DNA from: a virus
Direction: 5' to 3' (one strand)
Length of the DNA: 64,000 nt
Virus record (IMG/VR): IMGVR_UViG_3300002446_000060
This document shows positions 10,415 to 56,400 of the stretch, piece by piece (the first letter of the stretch is position 1; every line of letters starts with the position of its first letter). A program made the translations under genes and the position numbers. The notes below the pieces were generated by a model, which worked only from the letters and a program-made list of their open reading frames with translations, made no database searches and had not been told where the DNA came from.

Positions 10415-12136
10415 TTAAGAAATATTAAAGTTTGATCCGTTTAATCTGATAATTACCATGCCCGCTCCACCAGCTCCGCCAATACCGCCAGCTGCTGCAC
10501 TTGCTCCGCCACCGCCACCGCCACCGCCGGGGCAACCACCACCACCACCACTTGATGAAAGTAATCCAACTTGTGAAGATAGACCAGGAACTCCTCCAAA
10601 CGAACTATTTGATCCATTTGTAGAGTTAATACCTATTGTCGAATCAATAACAGTCCCACCATTTCCACCATTTCCACCATATTTTCCTGCGTTTCCACCA
10701 TTTCTAATAGTGATTGTACTACCGCCACCGCCAGCACCACCGCCAGCACCCCATGCACCATTTCCACCAGCGATATTCGCACCACCACCACCACCGCTTG
10801 CTCCAGAAGGATTTACCATTTCTGGATTATTTACGCGTGTTCCAGGTCCACCAGTGACATTATATTGACCACCATAACTTATTCCGCCAGCTCCAGCAGA
10901 TCCAGCGCCGTATTGACCACCGCCACCGCCACCACCAATAACACTGTTAACAACATTGAAATAAGAATTTCCGCCTGTTCCACCAACTTGATCTTCTACA
11001 TTTGTTAATCCACCAGTTCCGCCGCTACCAACAACGATCTCGTAAACTGTTTCTGGAACAACTGTATATGCATTATGAGCAGCAGCACCACCACCACCGC
11101 CACCATGTCCTTCATTAGCAACGCGACCGCCAGCACCACCGCCGCCGCCACCAACAACTAATAATTTAATTGATGTAATTCCCAGCGGGCATGTCCAAGA
11201 ATAAGTTCCTGGAATTACATATTCCCATTGCGCAAAAATTGTATTTTGTAAACCAGTTACATCATCTTGAACATCTCCAACATCAGTTTCAAGACCACCA
11301 ATCGCTAATTCATTTGCATCAACTCTTCCTTCAAGATCTGCAATTCTTTTCTCATCAATAACAGATGTTGGTATTGCTGTATTAGGAGTATGATTAGGAC
11401 TCATTCTAGCTGATGCAATAACTCGTGTTGTAAATTCAGCAAATGTTCCACCATTTATTGTGTGAAAAATAGATGTTCTTAATGTTGTTCCAGATGAAAC
11501 ATTATACATTTTAGCAATTGCGCTTAATGATGATTCGAATGTTATCTTGCTTTGTAATATATTCTTAACATCATCATAAATTATTATTTCGATATCTTTT
11601 TCAGCAGAAACTGAAATATTTTGATCATCTAGATAAAAATCATAATAAGTATACCCATCAATGTCTTCACGTTTTTGAACGATTAAATATACTTCATAAG
11701 GTGAATTTTCTAAGTTACCAGCGCCAATCATTTCACCTGACATCTTAGTCATTTTTAAGAAATTATAGCTATAATTTTCCCAAAAAATGTAAAATTCATA
11801 TGATCTGCACAAGCTTTTATATTCTGTTGATATTGAGATACCACCATAATGAATATCAAAAGCAAACATTGTATCTAAATGTTGTTCAGAATATGCTTCG
11901 CCGGTTAAATGATGTTTATAACTAAATAATTTAACAGCTGAATTTGCTGTTGTTAATGTAACTGATTGAGAACCAGGAGTTAATATTTTTTGTGATCTTT
12001 CATTTAAAAATGTTGTTCTATTTAATAATGCCTGGGCTTGGCTATTTGCAACTTGTCCAGGACCGCCTAAAACAACATCAGTCGTTTCTATTTGATATAC
12101 ATCATCCAATGATGAAACTGGAGTTAGGTTTGACAT
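10415..12136 (-). CDS. Tail fibre protein with glycine-rich C-terminal domain
   Basis: N-terminus VYQIETTDVVLGGPGQVANSQAQALLNRT is typical of P2/Mu-type fibre anchors; coiled-coil then PGTYSWTCP..LVVGGGGGG Gly-rich domain. Confidence 0.75.
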   Translation of the reverse strand: MSNLTPVSSLDDVYQIETTDVVLGGPGQVANSQAQALLNRTTFLNERSQKILTPGSQSVTLTTANSAVKLFSYKHHLTGEAYSEQHLDTMFAFDIHYGGISISTEYKSLCRSYEFYIFWENYSYNFLKMTKMSGEMIGAGNLENSPYEVYLIVQKREDIDGYTYYDFYLDDQNISVSAEKDIEIIIYDDVKNILQSKITFESSLSAIAKMYNVSSGTTLRTSIFHTINGGTFAEFTTRVIASARMSPNHTPNTAIPTSVIDEKRIADLEGRVDANELAIGGLETDVGDVQDDVTGLQNTIFAQWEYVIPGTYSWTCPLGITSIKLLVVGGGGGGAGGRVANEGHGGGGGGAAAHNAYTVVPETVYEIVVGSGGTGGLTNVEDQVGGTGGNSYFNVVNSVIGGGGGGGQYGAGSAGAGGISYGGQYNVTGGPGTRVNNPEMVNPSGASGGGGGANIAGGNGAWGAGGGAGGGGSTITIRNGGNAGKYGGNGGNGGTVIDSTIGINSTNGSNSSFGGVPGLSSQVGLLSSSGGGGGCPGGGGGGGGASAAAGGIGGAGGAGMVIIRLNGSNFNIS

Positions 12137-12638: not shown

Positions 12639-12669
12639 TGTTTACCTCCGGGTTATTAACTTTATTTAC

Positions 12670-13548
12670 TTATAATAATTTATCAAATGTGTCGTATGGA
12701 ACTCCAAGTTCAGATGCAACTATTGAATATAATTCAAATACTCCGCCATCTTTACCATCATAATTTCTTGTTCCATCAAACATTCTAGCACCATTATAAT
12801 AAAATACTTTTTCACTTAGATCAGCAATTTCAATTATATTTGGCGCTACTAAAAAATCAAATTCATATGTTTCAATTGCATCAGCAACATAAAACGGTTC
12901 TGTTGGTGAATATACTTCCCCGATGGCATATGTTTCAATCGCATCAGCAATATAAAAACTATCTGTTCCATCTACTGGAAATAAAAACTCTGGATAAAAT
13001 CCAACTGGATTCAATTGATCGATCATGGATACAATTAAATTACGTCTAAAGTCGCCTTGAATCGTATAGGTATAAGCATTTTTATATGGGAGATAATTTC
13101 CAGGAATATAATAAGGTGGATCATAACTCATCCAATAATCAGAATTTTCAATTACAGTATAATCAATTGTTTCTACATAATTCTCATCGCTATAAACAAA
13201 GAATCGTGTTAAATATTTTAATGCAATATCAAATGATAATTTTTTACCTTTATTATTATAAAGCAACTTACTAATGGAAAGAAATAATCTCTTATTTTCA
13301 TTAGTAAGCTGATATTGTGTCGTATCCAATAAATTTTTACAATATTGCTCAAAATAATCATCAATAAAAGTATCAGTTATTTTATCCGGATCAAGATTAT
13401 CAGTGATATTCATTATATCCTGAGCGCATTCTTGATCAACAAAATCTATAAATCCATATAAGAATTTTATATATTGCGGATAACGTGTATAGTAATATTC
13501 TGGAATTTTTGAATCAATAATCTGTCTAAGACGTTTAGTAAGAATCAT
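12670..13548 (-). CDS. Baseplate wedge protein (short gp7-like / P2 gpI-like)
   Basis: IPEYY..YPQYIKFL, YNNKGKKLSF, NPVGF and C-terminal YNG..FDG..YDG; follows gp6. Confidence 0.6.
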   Translation of the reverse strand: MILTKRLRQIIDSKIPEYYYTRYPQYIKFLYGFIDFVDQECAQDIMNITDNLDPDKITDTFIDDYFEQYCKNLLDTTQYQLTNENKRLFLSISKLLYNNKGKKLSFDIALKYLTRFFVYSDENYVETIDYTVIENSDYWMSYDPPYYIPGNYLPYKNAYTYTIQGDFRRNLIVSMIDQLNPVGFYPEFLFPVDGTDSFYIADAIETYAIGEVYSPTEPFYVADAIETYEFDFLVAPNIIEIADLSEKVFYYNGARMFDGTRNYDGKDGGVFELYSIVASELGVPYDTFDKLL

Positions 13549-21101: not shown

Positions 21102-21133
21102 AAGAGCATGGAGAATTTAATCCCCATGCTCTT
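21102..21133 (-). terminator. Intrinsic terminator after major capsid gene
   Basis: aagagcatgg/ccatgctctt stem followed by TCTTTTT on the minus strand. Confidence 0.75.
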
Positions 21134-21150
21134 ATTTACTCAATCAGATG

Positions 21151-22524
21151 TTATGAAGGAAGATTGGTGATTTCGATCTTTCTGAAATAATGTTCAGCTC
21201 CAAACGGATTATCAGTGAGAGCATATCTCATTCTGAAGAAAATTCTAGGCTGATCAGATTCCTGAGTTACACCCTGAGTAATTTTGAGAGGAACGTAAGG
21301 TGAATAGAATACACCAGCGTCAACTTCTGTATTACCCTTATAACCCATAATGATCTGTGTTGCATCACTCTGGATATCAACAAAAACCTTCATGTAACCA
21401 TTAAACATACCTACGAATGCAGATGCAAGAGGATCTACATTTGAAGTATCGAGTCTGCCAGACATTTCAAGAGCGGTAAGAGTGGAGGTATCAACAATCA
21501 TGAAGTTACCCTGGCCGCGTCTGTTAGCTTTTGCAATTTCACGTGAAGTTCTGGAAATCTTAGCTGCAAGGTTCTGATACTTTTCAACTTCCCATCTACC
21601 ATCAGCAGTTGAATAATTCCACGAAGTTACGCCACCGATAACGGCTTTGGCATCAGCAAGATCAATGAATTCACGATTAAGTTCAAGAATAATTTCTTCT
21701 GAACCAATCTGTGTGAAAAGACTAACTGCATCGATACCATGGCATGACTGGAGATCTTCAGCCATTTCTCTAGTGTAACTAGATTTCATTTTTCTACTTC
21801 TAACAGAAGCAGTTGCTTTTTCAATAGTAACGCCAAGTTCTTTCATATCAGTTCCAAGAACTTCACCAGCTGCAGTTGTTACTGAGCCAGACCAGTTTTT
21901 GAAAATGGTTTTGTAGAGAGCTTCATTGGCAGTCTGTGAAACAACTGTGGTTGCCTGAGCATTGTAAGGATTTGCATTATCAAGAAGATCATCAATTGCA
22001 AATCTATCAGCACCGCTGTTTGAGGTAATTTTAACGAGAAGTTTGTTACCTTCAATGTAAGCTACTGTACCAGTAACACCGGTAGAATTTGTGATATCAC
22101 CACCAACGGTAAAACCAGTTGAACTACCAACAATAAGAATCTGGCTTGTTGCATATTTCTGAGGAGTAGCTTCTGTGCCAGCATATACTGCTCTAAGAGC
22201 AAAAATAAGACCAGCTGGAGTATTAAGAGGCTGAACACCAAAGATTTCCATACCGATAAGAGAAGGAACTACACGTCTAAGCATAGGAATAAGAATCGGC
22301 TGAAACTGTTCGAGATCGCCAGAAACAGTTGATTCAAGAACCAATTTTTCAAGCTGTTCGAGCTGCATTGCAAGAATGGGAACATGTTTTGATTTAACTT
22401 TTGGCATTACGTCTCTGATAAAATCAAAAGCTTTATCTTCACATGTGATAACTTTATCCCATTTTTTCATAAGCTTTGCCGGAGAATCAAATACAATTGT
22501 TTTATTAATTTCACTGTCCATCAT
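21151..22524 (-). CDS. gp23: Major capsid protein (T4 gp23-like) with an inserted beta domain
   Basis: PILIPMLRRVVPSLIG..GVQPLNTPAGLIFALR, RKMKSSYTREMAEDL, MGYKG..DAGVFYSPYVPL; likely processing site LVLE|S at residue 64. Confidence 0.96.
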   Translation of the reverse strand: MMDSEINKTIVFDSPAKLMKKWDKVITCEDKAFDFIRDVMPKVKSKHVPILAMQLEQLEKLVLESTVSGDLEQFQPILIPMLRRVVPSLIGMEIFGVQPLNTPAGLIFALRAVYAGTEATPQKYATSQILIVGSSTGFTVGGDITNSTGVTGTVAYIEGNKLLVKITSNSGADRFAIDDLLDNANPYNAQATTVVSQTANEALYKTIFKNWSGSVTTAAGEVLGTDMKELGVTIEKATASVRSRKMKSSYTREMAEDLQSCHGIDAVSLFTQIGSEEIILELNREFIDLADAKAVIGGVTSWNYSTADGRWEVEKYQNLAAKISRTSREIAKANRRGQGNFMIVDTSTLTALEMSGRLDTSNVDPLASAFVGMFNGYMKVFVDIQSDATQIIMGYKGNTEVDAGVFYSPYVPLKITQGVTQESDQPRIFFRMRYALTDNPFGAEHYFRKIEITNLPS

Positions 22525-22562
22525 AATATAAACTCCTTAAAATATTTCAGTATTAGTTTTAT

Positions 22563-23363
22563 TTACTTTCTTAATCTACTGAGGTAGCCATCAACTTTGA
22601 GGCGTTCTTCTTTAGCAACTTTATCTTTCTTTTCTTCATCTTCTTCGTCTTTATCAACGACATCCTTAACTTCATCTTCTTCTTCAACTTCATCCTTATT
22701 TACTTCTTCTTCATCTTCTTCTTTGGTGACTTTCTTTTTCTTTGCTTCGCCAATTACAGTCTTTTTAAGAATTGCAAGTTTATCGCTAAAATCTTTAACA
22801 GATTCAGTAACAAGACCAGACATAAGGTTTAAAAGCTTTTCTTGGCTAACGGTTGACATACCATTAGTTGCTTTAAGAAAAATAACAGCTTTCTGTGCTT
22901 CAACAGCGTCTTTTTTCAATTCAATGTTTTCATTTAGAATTTTAGTATTTTCAATTTCAAGAATCTGCTTGCGAGTATTCATTTCGCTTACGAGTGATTC
23001 GTTACCTTCAGGAAGTTTGATACCATTTTTTTCAAAAACAGCTTGAATGCCATCAATAATCTGTTTTGCTTTTTCAACAACGATAACGTTTTTAATTGCA
23101 ACTTTATTTTCAGTTACAAATTCATCAACACAGTGCTTCATATAGTCGTTGATTTGTTCTTTGGTCTTGGCATTATATTCTTCAACTACAGCTTCAAACT
23201 TTGAATCATATTCTTCGGTAATTGCACGTTTTTCTGATTCAATTCGTTCGTTTGCAGCTTCTGCGACCATAGATTCAAAAATGACATCTAATTCCTGTTT
23301 TGCTTCTTCTGACAAAACTTCATCTTTAATATATTTCTCAAATGCAGGTATTAAATTCTTCAT
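22563..23363 (-). CDS. gp22: Prohead core scaffold protein (gp22-like)
   Basis: Coiled-coil acidic protein between gp21 and gp23; acidic tail and C-terminal YLSRL. Confidence 0.8.
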   Translation of the reverse strand: MKNLIPAFEKYIKDEVLSEEAKQELDVIFESMVAEAANERIESEKRAITEEYDSKFEAVVEEYNAKTKEQINDYMKHCVDEFVTENKVAIKNVIVVEKAKQIIDGIQAVFEKNGIKLPEGNESLVSEMNTRKQILEIENTKILNENIELKKDAVEAQKAVIFLKATNGMSTVSQEKLLNLMSGLVTESVKDFSDKLAILKKTVIGEAKKKKVTKEEDEEEVNKDEVEEEDEVKDVVDKDEEDEEKKDKVAKEERLKVDGYLSRLRK

Positions 23364-23399
23364 GTTTATTACTCCCTTAAATTAGTATTCGTGTAATAT

Positions 23400-24092
23400 T
23401 TACTTTCGAAATAAAGATCTAAAATAATTAGTCATAACCTTTTTAACTATTTGATCTTTAGTTTTTGATGTCATGTTTCGAAAATCATCTTTCGATTCTT
23501 CAATCACCTTATCAAAATCTTTTGCTTCAAGAATAACCCCATTTTGATATACCCAATCCTTATCTTCCATAACACCTTGAACGAACGCGTCAGGAGCACT
23601 TGGGTCATATACTATGTCTGACAACGAAATTATTTTTCGGCAATGAGTTTCAATATAATCATTTTTCTTAACAAGTTTTGCCAATGCTCTTGATGAAAAA
23701 CCTAATTGAACTCCAGCGTTTAATAAGTTTATAACTATGTCTCCACATGGGTTTCCTTCAATTGGTTTTGCCTTCAAATAAATATCATTATTGTCAATTC
23801 TTATTTCGGTGAATTTGTGTGAAACTCGTTCAAGATTTATTCTTACTTGATCTTTCAATTCATCAGGATGATTTAATTCGCCGAGAGCTCTATTCTTTTG
23901 CAAATAATTATCAACATGATCTTGAAGCTGTTCTAACATTGGCTCGCGAACATAGAAACGATCATTGGCATTTTTTAAATTTACTTGGATACCGATTCCT
24001 TCTAATACCCATGATTTTTTTCCATTGATATCTTCGAGAACTGGTTTAATTTTTTCACAATTAAATTCTCTAACTAATTTTAATCGTTCCAT
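23400..24092 (-). CDS. gp21: Prohead protease (gp21-like)
   Basis: LEGIGIQ..KNANDRFY, RALGELNHP, VSHK, LGFSSRA and DIVYDPSAPDAFV motifs. Confidence 0.93.
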   Translation of the reverse strand: MERLKLVREFNCEKIKPVLEDINGKKSWVLEGIGIQVNLKNANDRFYVREPMLEQLQDHVDNYLQKNRALGELNHPDELKDQVRINLERVSHKFTEIRIDNNDIYLKAKPIEGNPCGDIVINLLNAGVQLGFSSRALAKLVKKNDYIETHCRKIISLSDIVYDPSAPDAFVQGVMEDKDWVYQNGVILEAKDFDKVIEESKDDFRNMTSKTKDQIVKKVMTNYFRSLFRK

Positions 24093-26276: not shown

Positions 26277-26822
26277 TTATTTACTTGATTTCTTGATGCC
26301 GCCAACTTTTGTATAAAATCGGCTCATTAAAGTTTTAAAGATATATTCTTCACTTGCCTTTTTAAATTTCGGCATTACATTATCAACAACAACATCAAAA
26401 TTTTGATTGTTGAATTCTTTTATTTGACTTCTAATATGAGAATATAAATATGTTCTGATACAAAGCATTAAATAGCCTTTTGGAATTTGAGCAGCTTTAA
26501 AAGCATTCTTAATATCAGAATATTTAATTCTCTTTTTCCATGATGTAGCTTTCATAAATTCAGTTAATAATGATTTTCGCCATGTCCATGGAAGATAATG
26601 AAAGTTTATTCCAATAAATCTATCACCTGATTTACCCAATAGTATAAACATTGGAAGAGCATCCCAAAATTCAAGTTGTGACTTCCATTTAGCATCATAA
26701 ATCATTAAATAGAGATATCCAAGTTTTGCTTTTAATGGACTTTTTAAAGTCTCAACTTGTATTTTTTCTCTATCTTCTATAATGTCCAATAGTTTTTGAA
26801 CTTGTTTTGGTAAACTCGCCAT
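26277..26822 (-). CDS. gp2: DNA end protector (gp2-like)
   Basis: YLMIYDAKWK..FWDALP, FIGINFHYLP and CIRTYLYSHIRS motifs. Confidence 0.85.
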   Translation of the reverse strand: MASLPKQVQKLLDIIEDREKIQVETLKSPLKAKLGYLYLMIYDAKWKSQLEFWDALPMFILLGKSGDRFIGINFHYLPWTWRKSLLTEFMKATSWKKRIKYSDIKNAFKAAQIPKGYLMLCIRTYLYSHIRSQIKEFNNQNFDVVVDNVMPKFKKASEEYIFKTLMSRFYTKVGGIKKSSK

Positions 26823-26823
26823 A

Positions 26824-27255
26824 TTAGTCCTCGCTCAAGAATGAATCGATTTGATCTTTGAGTGATGCGTCGGAACCTTTATATATGATATCTATAATAT
26901 ATTTTCGAGCATTCATTATTGCTGAGTCAGACATTACCTTTATTTCACTCTCATCAACGCCGTTTAAACCTTCGTCAACAAACATTAATTCATAATCAGA
27001 TTTTAATTTTTTATATGATAGAACAAATCTAATTTCACCTCTACCCCAAACATACGTTGGGTCAAATGTTGTTGATAGACCTTTTTTGTGTATTGTTCCT
27101 AGCGATGGTCTAAAATAATTATGTGTCATTATATTTTTTGCTGCTTCTTTATTAGTCAAATGATATAATTGATCGTTTTTAATCTTTGATTCAATATCTT
27201 TATCAATTTTTTTAATTAGCATTGACTCTAATAATATGCTAGACCAATTTTTCAT
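26824..27255 (-). CDS. Putative head-internal protein with ADP-ribosyltransferase-like fold
   Basis: Leader MKNWSSILLE|S; LYHLT, GLSTT and DESEIKV in the order of the ART H / S-T-T / E-x-E strands. Confidence 0.45.
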   Translation of the reverse strand: MKNWSSILLESMLIKKIDKDIESKIKNDQLYHLTNKEAAKNIMTHNYFRPSLGTIHKKGLSTTFDPTYVWGRGEIRFVLSYKKLKSDYELMFVDEGLNGVDESEIKVMSDSAIMNARKYIIDIIYKGSDASLKDQIDSFLSED

Positions 27256-49360: not shown

Positions 49361-50029
49361 ATGAAATTTGAAATAAGAACCATAAAAATAAAATACGACA
49401 AATACAATGCTGAGTTGTTTGATTCTAAACTTCCACCATCTAATCAAATAAATTTCGAATTTTTCAAATCTAAGAATGCTATTGCAATGATTAGATATCC
49501 AATTAGTTGGAATCGCGATGATGCAGTAACATTTAGATTGAATTCACTGGTAGAATTTGAAACAGAACAATCTTTAAATCATACAATCATTCATGAAATG
49601 ATACACGTTTCTCAGTTCTATAATAGAGCATCAGAAACTGGCCATGGCCGTGATTTTAAACGTATTGCTAATGAAATATATGGCAAGAGTCATGGTCTCT
49701 TTAATATCACTAGAGTTCACTATGGCGAAGTTGAAATGATTGCTAAACAAAAAACAAATTCAAATATAATTGAAGATTGTATTGTTGTAGTAACTGATAA
49801 CAACTCGTTTAGAGTATATAAAAATACATCTTTAGAACGAATTAAAAGTCAAATGTTGTTATTTTCGTGCAATCAAGAATATTTCAAATATTCAGGAACA
49901 TTATTTAATACATACAATTCAAGTAGATCAAACATTTGCACGTCTGTATCATTTCAAAAAAATGTAAATAATATTGTTGAAGAAATGAAGAAGACCGCCG
50001 AAGTTTTATTAAAAAGGACAATAATATGA
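49361..50029 (+). CDS. SprT-like zinc metalloprotease
   Basis: YDKYNAELF..LP, TIIHEMIH (HExxH) and HGRDFKR motifs. Confidence 0.82.
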   Translation: MKFEIRTIKIKYDKYNAELFDSKLPPSNQINFEFFKSKNAIAMIRYPISWNRDDAVTFRLNSLVEFETEQSLNHTIIHEMIHVSQFYNRASETGHGRDFKRIANEIYGKSHGLFNITRVHYGEVEMIAKQKTNSNIIEDCIVVVTDNNSFRVYKNTSLERIKSQMLLFSCNQEYFKYSGTLFNTYNSSRSNICTSVSFQKNVNNIVEEMKKTAEVLLKRTII

Positions 50030-50523
50030 AAGAGTTTAAAGAATATATCGGTGAATCAAATGAACTTGACATAACTGATAAAGATGACATGATCGAACTT
50101 CTAATGGATCTTGATGAACAATTAGAAACTCCATTAGAAGCAGAGTTAGTCAGTTTACTTGTTTCGCTAATTAAAATGGATAAATTGGAATCTGATAGTT
50201 TTGATTCAATTGTTGATGCTATTGATTCTATTATTGATTTTGAACACACGGATCTTGGTTATGATTATGATGAAAACTATGAAGATGATTATGATGAAGA
50301 TGAAGAAGATGAAGTGGATGAAGCGCAACGCGCTTTGTATAAAAGAGCTGGATATATTAAGTGTCCAGATGGTAGAATAAGAAAAAGAGGCAAATGCGGC
50401 AAACCTCTCGATAGAAAAAGATCGAGACAAATGGTTAAAGCACGAAAGAAATTTAAAAGATCATTTGCAAAAGGCCAGAGAAAAGCTCAAAAAACCAAAA
50501 GAAGACTAGGTATGGTAAAATGA
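50026..50523 (+). CDS. Prohead core protein, gp68-like
   Basis: Leader MKEFKEYIGE|S; acidic N-half and very basic C-half ending KTKRRLGM, like T4 gp68. Confidence 0.5.
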   Translation: MKEFKEYIGESNELDITDKDDMIELLMDLDEQLETPLEAELVSLLVSLIKMDKLESDSFDSIVDAIDSIIDFEHTDLGYDYDENYEDDYDEDEEDEVDEAQRALYKRAGYIKCPDGRIRKRGKCGKPLDRKRSRQMVKARKKFKRSFAKGQRKAQKTKRRLGMVK

Positions 50524-50993
50524 AAAAATGGAATAAAATAGTTCTCGAAGGCATTAACGATAAGCGAACAAAAATTGAGATTTTAGCCAACGGAAAAAAA
50601 CAGATCATTCCAATTCCCTTTGGTTATGCAACTGATAGTGGTGAATATGGCCACAGAGACTTAGAAAAAATCAGAAACTATTTAACATCGACCGATAAAT
50701 ATGGTACTGTTTATCAAGTGCGACTTATTCAAGAGGCTAAAAATCAGTATCTGATTCTTGTTTCTTGTACTGACTTTGGAGATCAAGATTCTTTTAAACG
50801 TTCAGTAGAGCGCCGAATTATTAATGCTATGCAAAAATTTCAATTTAGACCAATGCCATCGAAGCTTTCAATCGTTGATTCGAAGTTTGTATATAACAAT
50901 GGAACCAACAATTATACACTCATTTTTAAAGCTATTGGCGAAAAACCAGTTGCATGGAACAATGTTGAAAATATGAAAGTTGAGATTATATGA
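50520..50993 (+). CDS. Putative head-internal protein
   Basis: Leader MKKWNKIVLE|G. Confidence 0.5.
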   Translation: MKKWNKIVLEGINDKRTKIEILANGKKQIIPIPFGYATDSGEYGHRDLEKIRNYLTSTDKYGTVYQVRLIQEAKNQYLILVSCTDFGDQDSFKRSVERRIINAMQKFQFRPMPSKLSIVDSKFVYNNGTNNYTLIFKAIGEKPVAWNNVENMKVEII

Positions 50994-51451
50994 AAAATTT
51001 TATGAATTATATATTAGAATCTAAAATGAATACGAAAGACTATAATTTTTATCTCTTAAATAAGGCCGGAAATAAAATACGTTCAGGTTGGGAATATAAA
51101 GAAGATGCTCAGGATGCAAAAGCTGATGATCCTGAATCTGGAAAAATAGTTGCAAAATCTTTTCTAAAACAAATGGATATTGATCCGAATGATGATAAGG
51201 TTTGGTCAACTGTGAATGAAAGTAAAAGTATCGTTAAAGAAGATCTTCATAAAAATTTTGGTGATAAGAATAAAAAGATGGATGAGTTGAAAAAATTTGA
51301 TACTCTTCTTGTTCAATCATTGAGACAATTAGCTGGTGTTGCTATGTGGGCTGAAGAAGAACAAAAGAAGCTGATTGCAGATATTCAGAAAGATCTTAGA
51401 GCAATTCAAAAGAAATCTGATACATTGTTTCTGGATGTTCTTGATAAATAA
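50990..51451 (+). CDS. Putative head-internal protein
   Basis: Leader MKNFMNYILE|S; second VNE|S site. Confidence 0.5.
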   Translation: MKNFMNYILESKMNTKDYNFYLLNKAGNKIRSGWEYKEDAQDAKADDPESGKIVAKSFLKQMDIDPNDDKVWSTVNESKSIVKEDLHKNFGDKNKKMDELKKFDTLLVQSLRQLAGVAMWAEEEQKKLIADIQKDLRAIQKKSDTLFLDVLDK

Positions 51452-51469
51452 CTGAGCGGTAAAAATAAA

Positions 51470-51829
51470 ATGAAAACATTTAATGAATATCTAAATATTG
51501 TTTGCGAGAATGAAGATAAAGAACTTGATAAAATAATCAATAGTCGTTTATCAGCTAGTTCTCAACAAATGAGAAAAAAACTGAAATCTGAATTGAAAAA
51601 ACTTATAGCTGGTGCAAGTAGCAATCTAGGTAAGTGGATTGAAGAAAAACAATCGGGCATCAAAGAATTTCTTCCTGAGTATTGGGAAGCTGCTTTAGCT
51701 GCATTGATATATCATCCAGAATCTGATTACGAACCACATCAAAAAATAAGAATGTATCATGCTATTGGTTCTTCATTCCATGAAAATATGAGAGATCCTC
51801 GAATGAAATACGATCCAGATGAAGATTAA
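51470..51829 (+). CDS. Putative head-internal protein (paralog of 52283)
   Basis: Leader MKTFNEYLNIVCE|N; shares KKL..E..KL..G..S.LGKW..E..GIK..PE with 52283. Confidence 0.5.
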   Translation: MKTFNEYLNIVCENEDKELDKIINSRLSASSQQMRKKLKSELKKLIAGASSNLGKWIEEKQSGIKEFLPEYWEAALAALIYHPESDYEPHQKIRMYHAIGSSFHENMRDPRMKYDPDED

Positions 51830-52286
51830 ATACCTTCGTTCAAATATAGTATTTCAAGAGATACCGGGTGAAATATCACTATCTTTTGAAATTACAAATT
51901 GTCCTTATTGCTGTCATAATTGTCATTCGCCTGAATTGCAAGAAGATATTGGTATTGAGTTAACTGTAGATGTTTTGCGATATTATATCGAAAAAAATAA
52001 AATAAATAATAAAATGTTAATTTCTTGTGTATTATTTATGGGAGGTGATCAGCATCCTGAATTATTAGACTTAATAAAAGTAGTCAAAGAATACAATTTG
52101 AAGACTGCTCTCTACACTGGAAGCGATGATGTTGATATAATACTCAAAAATCAATTAGATTATCTTAAAACGGGTCCATACATTAAAGAATTTGGCGATT
52201 TGAGATCTAAGAACACTAATCAAAGATTGTATAAAATAGTTGGTGGTATAGAAGTTTCTAGAATTGAGTTAGGAGATTTAACATGA
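51819..52286 (+). CDS. nrdG: Anaerobic RNR activating enzyme (radical SAM)
   Basis: FQEIPGEISL, CPYCCHNC (CxxxCxxC), FMGGD and YLKTGPY..NTNQRLY. Confidence 0.92.
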   Translation: MKIKYLRSNIVFQEIPGEISLSFEITNCPYCCHNCHSPELQEDIGIELTVDVLRYYIEKNKINNKMLISCVLFMGGDQHPELLDLIKVVKEYNLKTALYTGSDDVDIILKNQLDYLKTGPYIKEFGDLRSKNTNQRLYKIVGGIEVSRIELGDLT

Positions 52287-52591
52287 ATTGGAATGAACTA
52301 ATAATAGAACGGAAAGAAGATATCGATGAAGAAATGGTTAATCGACATCTAAATTCTAATGAAGTTGAAATTCAAAAGAAATTAAGAAAAGAATATCAAA
52401 AACTTTTATTAGGAGTCAACTCAGAATTGGGTAAATGGCTAGTTGAAAATGAAACTGGCATTAAGTATTATATGCCAGAAATTTATACAAATGCTTTTTA
52501 TGCCTTGACTCAAGTTAATACATCAATTAAAAATGTAAAGGTATTTAATGAAATTGGAAGTTTGTATAAAAAATATTTGTATTCAAAATAA
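52283..52591 (+). CDS. Putative head-internal protein (paralog of 51470)
   Basis: Leader MNWNELIIE|R; see 51470. Confidence 0.5.
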   Translation: MNWNELIIERKEDIDEEMVNRHLNSNEVEIQKKLRKEYQKLLLGVNSELGKWLVENETGIKYYMPEIYTNAFYALTQVNTSIKNVKVFNEIGSLYKKYLYSK

Positions 52592-52605
52592 CAATAAAAT
52601 TGTTT

Positions 52606-52641
52606 AAAAATACTCTAAGATTAAGTTCTTAGAGTATTTTT
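52606..52641 (+). terminator. Intrinsic terminator
   Basis: aaaaatactctaaga / tcttagagtattttt 15-bp stem including the T-run. Confidence 0.7.
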
Positions 52642-52703
52642 TATTAAAAAAACATCAATAATAGTAATATAAATTTATCTTAATTTATGAAAGGTTTTAC
52701 TAT

Positions 52704-53384
52704 ATGAAACTAAGCAAAAAAACTCTATCTATTCTCAAATCATTTTCTTCAATTAATCCAGTTATTTATTTCGGTGATCCAAAAGCAATTAAAGTCGTAA
52801 GTCCAGATGGCGGTGTAATTGGTTGTTATCAAGCTGATGAATCTATTAACAGAGAATGTTCATTTTGGGAAACCCCAAAACTTCTAGCAACAATTGATTC
52901 TATGGGTGGAGAAGAAGCCGAATTAGATTTTAATGATAAGTTTGTTAAAATCGTTTCTAATGATAAATCATCTCTTAAATACTTTTACACACCAGAAGCA
53001 ATGATTTTATCCTCAAACCCTAAACCAAAATCGTACGAAGCATATTGCAAAGCCATGGAAATGAATGTTGAATTTGAATTGCCAGTCGAGATGTTTAATA
53101 AGATTATGAAATTGTCTCAAGTAATGCAATTGAATAATCTTAAAATTGAATTTGAAAATGATAAAGGCAAAATCTTCCTTCTTGATGATACGAACAAAGT
53201 ATCTCACAACTTTGAATATGATATAAATGGTAAAGGAACAGGTTCTATCACACTTTACATTTCATCATTGAATATTATTCCTGGAACATACAACATTGTG
53301 ATTAAATCGGGTCTATTTTCCAAATTCATCAATAAAGATATTCCATTATTCTATATTGTTGCTGGCAAAAAGGAACAGAAATAA
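52704..53384 (+). CDS. gp45: Sliding clamp (gp45-like)
   Basis: MKLSKKTLSILKSFSSINP, LKYFYT and LNIIPGTYNIVI motifs. Confidence 0.92.
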   Translation: MKLSKKTLSILKSFSSINPVIYFGDPKAIKVVSPDGGVIGCYQADESINRECSFWETPKLLATIDSMGGEEAELDFNDKFVKIVSNDKSSLKYFYTPEAMILSSNPKPKSYEAYCKAMEMNVEFELPVEMFNKIMKLSQVMQLNNLKIEFENDKGKIFLLDDTNKVSHNFEYDINGKGTGSITLYISSLNIIPGTYNIVIKSGLFSKFINKDIPLFYIVAGKKEQK

Positions 53385-53386
53385 TT

Positions 53387-54325
53387 ATGAATTTAATTGA
53401 TATTCAAAGAACGTCTAATGACTGGGGAATGAAATATCGTCCAAATAAATTTGAAGATATTATTTTGCCAGAAAGATATACCAATCAATTTAAAAAAGTA
53501 ATAGCTCAAAAAGCTATGTGTAATTACATTTTTTCTGGTGAACCTGGGTGTGGCAAGACATCATTGGCAATGATACTAAGCAAAGAATTAGAATATGATA
53601 CGCTCTATCTAAACCTATCCAACGACACTGGTGTTGATGTATTAAGAAATGATATAAAATCATTTGGCATGACAGTATCATTAAATGGTGATAGAAAACT
53701 CGTAATTGCTGATGAATGTGATAGAGCTTCTCCTCAATTGAAAGATGCTTTAAAAGCTGAAATAGAAGCTATGTCAGAGAATGTTAGTTTTATCTTTATA
53801 ACTAATCATATCAATGTCATTCCAGCTCCTCTTCTTTCAAGACTTCAAAAAATTGATTTCACATTTACGCCAGATGAAATTAAAACACTAAAAACGTCTA
53901 TCTATAAACGAACTGTAGAAATTCTAAACCTGAATAAAGTTGAATATGAAAAAGAAGCAATTCAATTTGTTGTTAATAAAATCTTTCCAGATTTTAGAAA
54001 GATATTGAACCAACTTCAGTGCTTATCATTTCAAGGAGCAATCACAAAAGATGTTGTCGAAACATCAATATCCGTAAATATGAAAGATTATTTTGACATA
54101 CTTAAAAGAAAAAAGTATAAAGACCTAAGACAATACATTGCAAATCTTTCACTGAATCCACAGTATTTTTATTCAGAAATATTTAAAGATATTGACACTT
54201 ATTTTGAAAAGGATAAACTGGCGCAGGCTATTTTAATTTTATCGAGATATAGTTATGAATCAGCTTTTGTTATAGATCATGAATTAAATTTGTGTGCTTG
54301 CTCAATGGAATTGATGCTAATTTGA
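53387..54325 (+). CDS. gp44: Clamp loader large subunit (gp44-like)
   Basis: KYRP..FEDIILP, GEPGCGKTS, ADECD, FIFITN and FPDFRK motifs. Confidence 0.95.
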   Translation: MNLIDIQRTSNDWGMKYRPNKFEDIILPERYTNQFKKVIAQKAMCNYIFSGEPGCGKTSLAMILSKELEYDTLYLNLSNDTGVDVLRNDIKSFGMTVSLNGDRKLVIADECDRASPQLKDALKAEIEAMSENVSFIFITNHINVIPAPLLSRLQKIDFTFTPDEIKTLKTSIYKRTVEILNLNKVEYEKEAIQFVVNKIFPDFRKILNQLQCLSFQGAITKDVVETSISVNMKDYFDILKRKKYKDLRQYIANLSLNPQYFYSEIFKDIDTYFEKDKLAQAILILSRYSYESAFVIDHELNLCACSMELMLI

Positions 54326-54333
54326 AATTATAC

Positions 54334-54363
54334 AAAGAGGGCTTAAATATTTAAGCCCTCTTT
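54334..54363 (+). terminator. Hairpin between gp44 and gp62
   Basis: aaagagggcttaaa / tttaagccctcttt followed by T. Confidence 0.6.
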
Positions 54364-54377
54364 TAAAAGGAATTAAT

Positions 54378-54776
54378 GTGGATATTTTTACAATTCTCAA
54401 AGATATTAATATTGGAAAATCATTTAACTTGCACAATGATGCTGACTTCAATAAACAATATAATCCTTTTATGATCAATCGTTATTTGTCTATGAACCCC
54501 GAAACAGTATTAGAAGCCAATTGCATGAATAAATATAGTCAGAATAGTAAATCGGTGCAATATTTATTTTATTCTAGTATAATTGAAAAGAAAGATAGAT
54601 TTTTGAAATATCTCAAGTCCGAATCATCAAAAGAAGATAAAGATTTGATAAAATATATTCAAAAGCTTTATCAAGTAAATAAAATAGTTGCAGAGGATAT
54701 TGTTAAAACAATTCCTCAAGAAGAAAAAGACTTAATTATTGAAATGTTTGAGCAAAAAACAATAAGGAAAAGATAA
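54378..54776 (+). CDS. gp62: Clamp loader small subunit (gp62-like)
   Basis: IFTILKDIN, YNPFMINRYLS, EANCMN and QYLFY motifs. Confidence 0.88.
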   Translation: MDIFTILKDINIGKSFNLHNDADFNKQYNPFMINRYLSMNPETVLEANCMNKYSQNSKSVQYLFYSSIIEKKDRFLKYLKSESSKEDKDLIKYIQKLYQVNKIVAEDIVKTIPQEEKDLIIEMFEQKTIRKR

Positions 54777-54777
54777 T

Positions 54778-55119
54778 ATGAAAAAATGGAATAATATCGT
54801 ATTAGAAAATAATGGTAACGTATCATTTAGCATAAAAAATGATACAGGAAGCTCTTTTTATAAGCACCTAGAACCAATACAACAGAGAGAATTGTTGAAA
54901 AAATTAAAATCATCTAATGATGCTAATATTAAAAAATTTATTGACGAATTGAAAGCTGAAGATGGATATACACCATCAATAACTGTAAACTATAATAATT
55001 TTTCATTTGGAATGTATGGCGTTGATGGTGTCATTAGTTTATCCAAAGGTGGTCCATATCCAAGCGGAGCCAAATTGGATAATTTGTTAGATATTGATGA
55101 ATTCATTTCAGCTATTTAA
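54778..55119 (+). CDS. Putative head-internal protein (paralog of 55759)
   Basis: Leader MKKWNNIVLE|N; shares DGYT.SI.V.YNN..FGMYG.DGV and LDIDEFI with 55759. Confidence 0.5.
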   Translation: MKKWNNIVLENNGNVSFSIKNDTGSSFYKHLEPIQQRELLKKLKSSNDANIKKFIDELKAEDGYTPSITVNYNNFSFGMYGVDGVISLSKGGPYPSGAKLDNLLDIDEFISAI

Positions 55120-55123
55120 TACA

Positions 55124-55176
55124 AAAATTCATCCTAAGTAAATAATTATAAAATCATTTTACTTAGGATGAATTTT
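55124..55176 (+). promoter_or_regulatory. 19-bp perfect hairpin covering the regA RBS
   Basis: aaaattcatcctaagtaaa / tttacttaggatgaatttt; AGGA in right arm, TATAAAAT in the loop. Confidence 0.6.
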
Positions 55177-55536
55177 ATGATAAAAATAAAAATTTGCAAA
55201 GATGAAGCTATTATTATTGAAACATTAGAGAGACTTGGTATTGGTAATCGCCAAATGAAGACTATGTATCCAAGTGTTTATTTAAAACGAACTATAAATG
55301 GATATGCATTATTTCATTTTAAAGAATTGATGGAATCAGATGGTTTAACAGTTAATATAACAGAAGAAGATATTAACAGAAGAAATAGTATCATAAAGCT
55401 TTTAGAAAAATGGAATTTGATTAAAATTGATGATGAATCATTTCCGAAAGAATTTGAAACTGTTTTTGTATATGTATTGTCATATGTTGAGAAGGTTGAA
55501 TGGAAAATAAGTCATAAGTATAGAAAAAAATTTTAA
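55177..55536 (+). CDS. regA: Translational repressor RegA
   Basis: ETLERLGIGN..MYPS..HFKELMESDG..TEEDINRRNSI..LLEKWNLI; start 55177 (MIKI) aligns with T4 MIEI and has AGGA at 8 nt. Confidence 0.9.
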   Translation: MIKIKICKDEAIIIETLERLGIGNRQMKTMYPSVYLKRTINGYALFHFKELMESDGLTVNITEEDINRRNSIIKLLEKWNLIKIDDESFPKEFETVFVYVLSYVEKVEWKISHKYRKKF

Positions 55537-55550
55537 GGTGGTAGAATAAT

Positions 55551-55748
55551 ATGAAAAAGTTTTCAGAATATGTTGGAGAAAATGTTATAGACAATGGTCA
55601 ATATAGAATATCAATTAAAGATGGCTCTGATATTATAACATTTGTTAATGATAACGGCGAAATTTTTATTAAATTTAATCGCGAGCCAATTCAATTAAAT
55701 GCAGCGGATAGTCAAAAACTTATTAGTTGGTTTGTAAATCAATCGTAA
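55551..55748 (+). CDS. Putative head-internal protein
   Basis: Leader MKKFSEYVGE|N. Confidence 0.5.
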   Translation: MKKFSEYVGENVIDNGQYRISIKDGSDIITFVNDNGEIFIKFNREPIQLNAADSQKLISWFVNQS

Positions 55749-55758
55749 GGACATAAAT

Positions 55759-56097
55759 ATGAAATGGAATAAACTAGTATTAGAAGAAGCTAATAAAATA
55801 TCTTTTTATAAACATCCTAGAGGTAAATCTGGTGTATATAAAAATTTGACTGCTGCTCAGACTGATAAATTAGTTAAAAATTTAGAAGATTGGCGAGATA
55901 CTGAAATAAGCAAGTTTTTGATGGAATTAGAAACTAGTGATGATTATACCAGAACTATCGGAGTAAGATTTAATAATGTAGCATTTGGTATTTATGGACG
56001 AGATGGTATAGTTAGAATTGCTACGGGTGATATGTATTCGACAGCAAAAGTATTAAATCAATATTTGAATATCGATGAGTTTATTAATTCACTATAA
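55759..56097 (+). CDS. Putative head-internal protein (paralog of 54778)
   Basis: Leader MKWNKLVLE|E. Confidence 0.5.
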   Translation: MKWNKLVLEEANKISFYKHPRGKSGVYKNLTAAQTDKLVKNLEDWRDTEISKFLMELETSDDYTRTIGVRFNNVAFGIYGRDGIVRIATGDMYSTAKVLNQYLNIDEFINSL

Positions 56098-56107
56098 GGA
56101 CATAAAT

Positions 56108-56386
56108 ATGAAATGGCATCAAATATTAATGGAAGAAAATTTTTCAATAAAAGAAAAGAAAAATAATTGGATTTTCGGAAATATTGATAAATATCGTTTT
56201 GAAGCAGAGTACACTAATCAGCCTTCGTCAATGGGTATTAACGATGGAAGAATAAGTAAATTATTTTTATTTGATAATAAAACACTAATTGCTTCTTATG
56301 AACGCGGATATGATGAAGAAATAGATAAATCAATAATCAAAACATGGAACAAATTAATAGAATATTTGGAAAAAGAATTAGAATAA
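56108..56386 (+). CDS. Putative head-internal protein
   Basis: ATG 56108 (SD AAGGA) preferred over track start 56075; leader MKWHQILME|E; GINDGRISKL..YERGYD core. Confidence 0.55.
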   Translation: MKWHQILMEENFSIKEKKNNWIFGNIDKYRFEAEYTNQPSSMGINDGRISKLFLFDNKTLIASYERGYDEEIDKSIIKTWNKLIEYLEKELE

Positions 56387-56400
56387 TATAATTAAAAAAG

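Follow-up and report, generated by a model that had tools for sequence, protein, structure and literature searches.

Capsid-targeting-like leaders on diverse proteins of an uncultured T4-like phage: candidate tags for loading cargo into the head

The 64,000-nucleotide stretch analyzed here (IMG/VR record IMGVR_UViG_3300002446_000060; hereafter the window) belongs to a metagenomic contig of 119,994 bp from an uncultured phage (OCNU01000024.1, GCA_900230635.1). Ten of its small open reading frames (ORFs) begin with a leader of 9-13 amino acids (aa) that ends in Glu and is built around either Trp (W-type) or Phe (F-type). On the strength of sequence comparison, these leaders are probably capsid-targeting sequences (CTSs) of the phage T4 kind, borne by internal proteins that would be cleaved after the Glu and injected.

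Results

In the leader consensus, Met-Lys is followed by an aromatic residue (position 4), two hydrophobic ones (7 and 8) and Glu (10). All ten leaders have Phe or Trp at position 3-4 and Tyr, Ile or Leu three residues on, and they end in a hydrophobic-x-Glu context (IVLE, LVLE, ILLE, LIIE, ILME, YILE, YIGE or YVGE). Searched in the DNA, M-K-x-[FWY]-x-x-x-hydrophobic-x-E gave six matches against 0.48 expected, a number that none of 100 shuffles reached, and all six are ORF starts. Among 20,372 residues we counted 44 instances of the core peptide motif, with 13 inside the first 17 residues of a protein and nine at positions 3-4. The leader pattern is far above chance and almost confined to N-termini. 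A position-specific scoring matrix made from the leaders splits the window's N-termini into nine at 16-25 bits and a next best at 1.3 bits, a separation that is circular for the window; on an independent relative, the same matrix returns 12 N-termini of at least 4 bits, and the next scores 0.9.

Phage T4 serves as a control in which the truth is known. The first ten residues of T4 IPIII suffice for packaging, and mutagenesis of its CTS has assigned residues 4 and 7 to targeting and residues 8 and 10 to processing by gp21 (PMC9026906). The window leaders conserve positions 1, 2, 4, 7, 8 and 10. In the T4 record, MKTYQEFIAE is indeed the leader of IPII and IPIII, as the initial annotation had it, and ipI starts MKTFKEFTST...ITE. 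Across all 169 kb of T4, the strict DNA pattern coincides with the ORF starts of ipII, ipIII and gp61.1 only. The last encodes 54 aa beside the primase gene (L023:667-831) and begins with MKTFKEFIKE, a perfect CTS. A relaxed regular expression applied to T4 ORFs of at least 45 aa recovers IPII, IPIII, gp24, gp61.1 and one spurious ORF. Gp24 has a 10-residue propeptide. The N-terminus of Alt, MELITELFDE, also matches if translation is begun at the second Met in the ORF, which we take to be the annotated start. Counting Alt, four of the six T4 matches are processed by gp21 (hypergeometric P ~1e-5, assuming about 10 processed proteins, a count from reviews, among 278 T4 ORFs). A matrix trained on the window alone ranks gp61.1, gp24 and gp21 at the top of the T4 N-termini, and the equally AT-rich Campylobacter phage NCTC12673 yields zero valid leader matches. 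The initial annotation had held that a pattern equally frequent on non-virion N-termini would speak against head targeting; in T4 it marks almost only prohead-targeted, gp21-cut proteins.

The W-type leader has a specific likeness to the capsid protein of the phage itself. The late head gene gp23 (21151-22524, minus strand) holds, just as first described, MKKWDKVITCE at residues 19-29 (22438-22470) and LVLE at residues 61-64 (22333-22344), the latter part of the probable maturation site LVLE/S (residues 61-65; the slash marks the cut). This site aligns with LTE65/A of T4 and is kept in close relatives, and some W-type leaders end in IVLE or LVLE, like it. MKKWDKVITCE is internal and is the local form of K-W-x-x-V-I/L-E; the alignment sets the T4 gp23 start ...AELLNKWKPLLEGEG against ...AKLMKKWDKVITCED of the window protein in the corresponding place. 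Because K-W-x-x-V/L-I/L-E occupies that place in most of 120 gp23 relatives, being absent from the most distant, the motif counts as broadly conserved among gp23 propeptides. Throughout the window proteome, K-x0-1-W-x-x-[ILV][ILV] is found only in the gp23 propeptide, the W leaders and one C-terminal site of a DUF7678 protein. That site, KTWNKLIEYLE (residues ~75-88 of the product of 56108-56386), could serve in C-terminal processing or targeting, as an element described for Alt does, or be a chance occurrence.

The gp23 N-terminal region probably touches the scaffolding core before it is removed (PMC9546572). The initial annotation had the W-type tag copied from the capsid propeptide: the resemblance is real and specific, while a shared constraint of docking and cleavage would account for it equally well as copying, the sequence favoring neither. 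If gp23 started at Met19 it would be a W-leader protein too, but we rejected this start because Leu takes the place of the Met in relatives and the preceding residues are conserved there. Complex prediction with the scaffold gp22 and the W-leader protein at 54778 scored 0.00 with poor folds, and says nothing either way.

The head-assembly partners that such leaders would call for are encoded next to gp23. The scaffold gp22 (22563-23363, minus strand) belongs to phrog_237, with an orthologue in the relative L047 assigned to T4_CASP, and its N-terminus MKNLIPAFEKYIKDE displays an F-type-like F-x-x-Y-I-x-x-E that is kept in a close relative (...VFEKYVSEE). A gp21-type prohead protease follows (23400-24092, minus strand; phrog_207, head maturation protease), whose orthologue in L047 is Pfam Peptidase_S77, and this S77 protease is presumed to be the processing enzyme of the leaders.

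It is conceivable that the leader instead serves early accessory proteins as a shared N-terminal module for interaction or regulation, with no link to the head and with convergence behind its likeness to a CTS. Such a module could be a short amphipathic helix by which all of them bind a single factor of host or phage, or a tag that times their degradation or activation. The leader is in fact predicted as a helix, most leader genes stand on the early strand in the company of replication and nucleotide-metabolism genes, and gp61.1 is an early T4 gene with the same N-terminus for which we know of no head role. However, T4's own ip genes are likewise outside the head cluster, one leader gene of the window is inside it, and the terminal hydrophobic-x-Glu matches the maturation site of gp23. 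Taken with the near exclusiveness of the pattern to gp21-processed head proteins in T4, this makes a head-independent module unlikely in our judgment.

All ten ORFs put forward in the initial annotation are present with their leaders, and Shine-Dalgarno sites of the AGGA/GGAG type, 6-9 nucleotides upstream of most starts and weaker at 50520, 50990 and 51470, support the start codons. We compared them with L001 (10.7 kb), G001 (an IMG/VR contig of 40.7 kb) and a variant strain of the window phage. On the plus strand, the gene at 50026-50523 joins the F-type MKEFKEYIGE to a 155-aa cargo with an acidic region and then a very basic tail; its G001 orthologue is 64% identical and begins MKDFLNYINE. 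The W-type MKKWNKIVLE at 50520-50993 precedes a 147-aa cargo of no known family, which is 88% identical in G001 behind a leader that has diverged to MKSWNEMLTE. That G001 orthologue (L016:19622-19810) is shortened to 62 aa, probably by a frameshift or as a pseudogene, consistent with fast turnover of leader genes. The F-type MKNFMNYILE (50990-51451) heads a 143-aa cargo, also of no known family, and the F-type MKKFSEYVGE (55551-55748) a cargo of 55 aa. MKWHQILME, W-type, stands before a DUF7678 domain that begins at residue 20 (56108-56386). The tenth gene, 26824-27255, is on the minus strand and combines the W-type MKNWSSILLE with a probable fold of the ADP-ribosyltransferase (ART) clan.

The remaining four plus-strand genes form two paralogue pairs. 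A 103-aa cargo is common to 54778-55119 (W-type MKKWNNIVLE) and 55759-56097 (W-type MKWNKLVLE), and the L001 orthologue of the latter is 84% identical with the leader MKKWNEIVLE. The other pair is 51470-51829, in which the long, 13-aa F-type leader MKTFNEYLNIVCE carries a 106-aa cargo, and 52283-52591, in which the W-type MNWNELIIE carries one of 93 aa; since these paralogues bear leaders of different type, the two classes appear interchangeable. The cargos had been called mostly unrelated, and with both pairs taken into account they make up eight families in the window, not ten. Public gene calls for 50990 and 56108 (L002:6225-6674 and 11352-11609) begin at an internal Met and so remove the leader, although at 56108 the Shine-Dalgarno site supports a start that includes it. 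As automatic gene callers cut leaders off in this way, searches for leaders in public protein sets will miss some of them.

Sequence comparison further shows that the leader is a transferable tag on unrelated mature domains. Across three phages, 26 leader proteins fall into ~20 cargo families. L001 contributes MKKWNEIVMES on a new 74-aa cargo, MKKWNEIVLEE and MKSFKTFIAQE, G001 has at least 12 leader ORFs in its 40.7 kb, and the strain variant adds one further F-type gene. Where Pfam domains are recognized they begin after the leader, at residue 14 for Acb1, 20 for DUF7678 and 27 for S-adenosylmethionine (SAM) lyase, and in G001 the leader gene 23832 has a 39%-identical paralogue, 26047, that starts directly at the domain. 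Orthologues retain 64-88% identity in the cargo, with leader changes restricted to the free positions. The window, L001 and G001 each have leader genes of their own in the gp62-regA-dUTPase interval. A scan of metagenome contigs with W-leader DNA returned six loci, four of them chance or uninformative hits, one a duplicate of G001 and one a new cargo.

Could only a subset of these proteins be packaged, for example the ART-like protein of the head cluster and those with the closest T4-like F-type leaders, the rest being decayed or co-opted copies? The repertoire is large and leader quality varies, from the 13-aa form at 51470 to leaders of relatives with Glu at position 9 or with none. Yet orthologues keep the key positions amid drift in the remainder of the leader, a sign of ongoing selection on most copies, and we rate a packaged subset as quite improbable.

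It is the leader peptide, and not its DNA, that is under constraint. Codons vary at fixed positions (ATA or ATC for Ile; GTT, GTA, TTA, CTA and CTC for Val/Leu; GAA or GAG for Glu), and positions 3, 5, 6 and 9 differ non-synonymously. Upstream DNA is common only to 55759 and 56108 among the leader genes: an identical 22-nucleotide stretch, TAAGGACATAAATATGAAATGG, spans the ribosome-binding site and first three codons of both (55737-55767 and 56086-56116), which hints at local duplication or cassette exchange between these adjacent W-leader genes. A common N-terminus could by the same token be a functionless by-product of cassette shuffling at a conserved start module of ribosome-binding site and first codons, and the gp62 and regA flanks are hypervariable between relatives. 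Constraint on the peptide together with so little common upstream DNA argues against a recombination-site by-product, as does the pattern of fixed and free positions, which is that of a peptide. The same leader moreover recurs in distant phages on ART-like homologues, and we give shuffling very little credence.

Expression timing was approached through promoter motifs. The T4 late promoter TATAAATA is not enriched, with 12 copies against 17.9 expected. The 8-mer AGTAAATA is enriched 3.6-fold (23 copies against 6.3 expected), and 18 of the 23 are on the minus strand, mostly in the late region. Several minus-strand copies closely precede gp23, gp22, portal and other late genes, including those at 22560-22567, 23397-23404, 26278-26285, 21133-21140 and 12663-12670, among others before head and tail genes. 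By its distribution, AGTAAATA is probably the late-promoter -10 element of the phage, replacing the T4 sequence. On the plus strand it occurs at 55137-55144, upstream of regA and three leader genes, and at 54674-54681, about 100 nucleotides before leader gene 54778; the variant GTAAATAA at 49964-49971 is 62 nucleotides before the first leader cluster. The case that these copies drive late transcription of the leader clusters is suggestive but thin. A sigma-70 and terminator scan of 48.5-57 kb stayed at chance level and was uninformative.

The ART-like gene lies inside the late head-gene cluster, between gp4 with a 226-aa gene and gp2, and is not at that position in a close relative. Its protein has 25 homologues, with H32, S61-T62-T63 and E102 invariant in a set of 22 homologues, and its AlphaFold2 model reaches a predicted local distance difference test (pLDDT) score of 90. 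The top matches in the PDB are all of the ART clan (Tpt1/KptA, DarT and PARPs), though weak, with a best E-value of 5.5e-3 and template-modeling (TM) scores of 0.54/0.63. Homologues in other phages have F-type leaders (MKTFKEYLIE, MLLFKDYLLE), W-type leaders or none, and the tag is modular in this respect too. In a 51%-MCP (major capsid protein) relative, two giant PARP-domain proteins, each of more than 1,360 aa, are encoded directly upstream of the portal gene (L048:1-6563, L051:975-2141), and the window phage's own genome also codes for a 388-aa WGR+PARP protein.

About 9 kb past the right end of the window, the same genome encodes a homologue of Acb1, which acts against the cyclic-oligonucleotide-based antiphage signaling system (CBASS), behind the W-type leader MQKWYEIIFE (L031:20982-21455, minus strand; Pfam Acb1 at residues 14-154). 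A homologue search with this protein found three relatives only, too few to give a leader distribution. The gp4-gp2 slot that holds the ART-like gene in the window holds Acb1 in a more distant, 45%-MCP relative (L050:5818-6315, on a 125-kb contig recorded as uncultured Arcobacter sp.), where the protein starts MINFQELFDG. The T4 gene order is ipI-57B(Acb1)-57A-1-3-2-4, and T4 Acb1 (57B, L037:953-1411) starts MMEFKDFSTG, near the MKTFKEFTST of IPI. We are not aware of T4 Acb1 as a virion protein. In G001, MKDFKNYIQE leads a SAM lyase and MKTFNQFINDE a zeta-toxin-like kinase.

The suggestion that diverse cargo has anti-defense roles thus finds recognizable candidates in the ART-fold protein, Acb1 and SAM lyase, while most cargos have no known family. 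Pfam and PHROG searches of the ten cargos in the window returned DUF7678/phrog_4709 for 56108 and nothing significant for the others. Atlas searches with 50520 and 55759 gave low-confidence models and weak leads (tail-completion-like and SUKH-like, TM below 0.5) that we did not use.

The phage is a very divergent T4-like myovirus of ~29% G+C and a member of a large clade of uncultured phages; its gp23 is 34% identical to that of the closest cultured phages, the Campylobacter CP81/NCTC12673 group. Late structural genes, including gp4, gp2, portal, protease, scaffold and gp23, occupy the minus strand of bases 1-30,000, and the plus strand of the remaining window encodes NrdD, SprT-like, NrdG, gp45, gp44, gp62, regA, dUTPase and a DNA methylase. 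A DNA search with 50000-56400 against the phage collection gave zero matches, and a search for related loci among viral contigs based on gp44 gave zero relatives.

Discussion

We propose a model in which the leader is an N-terminal propeptide that would dock its protein onto the scaffolding core of gp22 and its partners during prohead assembly. The gp21-type S77 protease would then cut after the Glu at position 9-13, in a hydrophobic-x-Glu context like that of gp23 LVLE/S, freeing the mature protein inside the head, from which it would exit with the DNA at infection. The cargo would consist of fast-turnover accessory effectors, at least some of them anti-defense or host-modifying enzymes. We infer the core binding, cleavage, packaging and injection of these proteins from their resemblance to T4. 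The initial annotation had proposed a cargo-tagging system for loading the head; the match to the CTS, the specificity of the pattern in T4, the modularity of the leader and the presence of protease and scaffold all support tagging, and packaging and injection would follow if the T4 precedent holds.

Several observations weigh against a head-loading role. Nine of the ten leader genes are in early or replication-type operons, and the late-promoter evidence, one 8-mer, is thin. To our knowledge, gp61.1 of T4 is not a packaged or virion protein despite its CTS-like N-terminus, so the leader pattern may not suffice. The number of tagged genes far exceeds the three IPs and Alt of T4, being at least 11 in ~94 kb of this genome and, for a relative, at least 12 within 40 kb. 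Lastly, among homologues of the ART and Acb1 cargo are some in which positions 4, 7 and 8 are kept but the Glu is missing.

The T4 internal proteins IPI, IPII and IPIII and their CTS were reportedly described by Mullaney and Black in 1996 and are covered by reviews (PMC9026906, PMC3012670). The proteins studied here are like them in having a propeptide, in the present case a predicted one, of 10-19 aa that begins Met-Lys, has its aromatic residue at 4 and its hydrophobic ones at 7/8 and carries Glu at the cut site, in combining unrelated mature domains with only the tag in common, and in being encoded outside the head cluster at variable loci. The machinery of gp21, gp22 and gp23 is common to T4 and the window phage, as are genes for modified cytosine. 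Unlike T4, with three such genes, it has at least 11 tagged genes in one genome and a Trp-type class without counterpart in the T4 record, and some of its cargo would, judging from sequence, be recognizable enzymes as opposed to small GmrSD inhibitors.

A second T4 parallel is Alt, a packaged and gp21-processed ADP-ribosyltransferase. The leader-tagged, 143-aa putative ART-clan protein is likewise encoded among head genes, and MELITELFDE, read from the second Met of Alt, has hydrophobic residues at 4/7/8 and Glu at 10 as the leaders do. However, Alt is a protein of 682 aa, whereas the ART-like protein measures ~130 aa, has no detectable sequence homology to Alt and, unlike Alt-type toxins, finds its best, weak, fold matches in Tpt1/KptA and DarT.

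Hyperplastic ip loci of T-even phages were reportedly described by Repoila et al. in 1994. Diverse internal proteins that have only the CTS in common are known from the T-even phages (PMC3012670, PMC12373910), and, at least where the latter source treats hyperplastic loci, ip genes are known by their signal sequence and the loci differ among close relatives, as here (PMC12373910). The present loci are different ones, in a different clade of phages with gp23 only 34% identical to that of the nearest cultured members. Ejection proteins of phiKZ and SPN3US also carry an N-terminal propeptide that the prohead protease cuts after Glu and that is thought to target the head, but those propeptides are 80-130 aa long, have the cleavage motif A/S/G-x-E and come from a different phage family (PMC5694885).

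The mechanism is textbook knowledge on T-even phages, and the system is therefore not of a new kind. Novel features suggested by the sequences are the presence and expansion of CTS-like tags in a distant uncultured clade, the Trp-type leader class (relative to the T4 record) with its specific likeness to the gp23 propeptide motif, and the enzymes among the tagged cargo, namely the ART-fold protein, Acb1 and SAM lyase.

It is tempting to speculate that the clade loads a pre-emptive arsenal of at least a dozen effectors, among them Acb1, SAM lyase and a minimal ART, through two interchangeable tags, the W class imitating the docking motif K-W-x-x-V-I/L-E of the gp23 propeptide and the F class resembling the scaffold N-terminus; we offer this tentatively, as a possibility about which doubt prevails. 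By extension, T4 Acb1 (MMEFKDF...) and gp61.1 (MKTFKEFIKE) may be unrecognized packaged proteins.

The likeness of the W-type leader to the gp23 propeptide motif provides a testable idea about the binding target of the CTS. Recent work on T4 found that each of the three IPs inhibits specific GmrSD type IV restriction enzymes (PMC12373910). Injected proteins act ahead of phage gene expression and hence form a first line of counter-defense, and the leader raises the possibility that Acb1, SAM lyase and enzymes of that sort arrive ready-made. A reliable tag for injected cargo would yield a short list of candidate anti-defense proteins, mostly without known family. If the clade does carry such an arsenal, the leader would be a general sequence handle with which to find injected anti-defense proteins in metagenomes.

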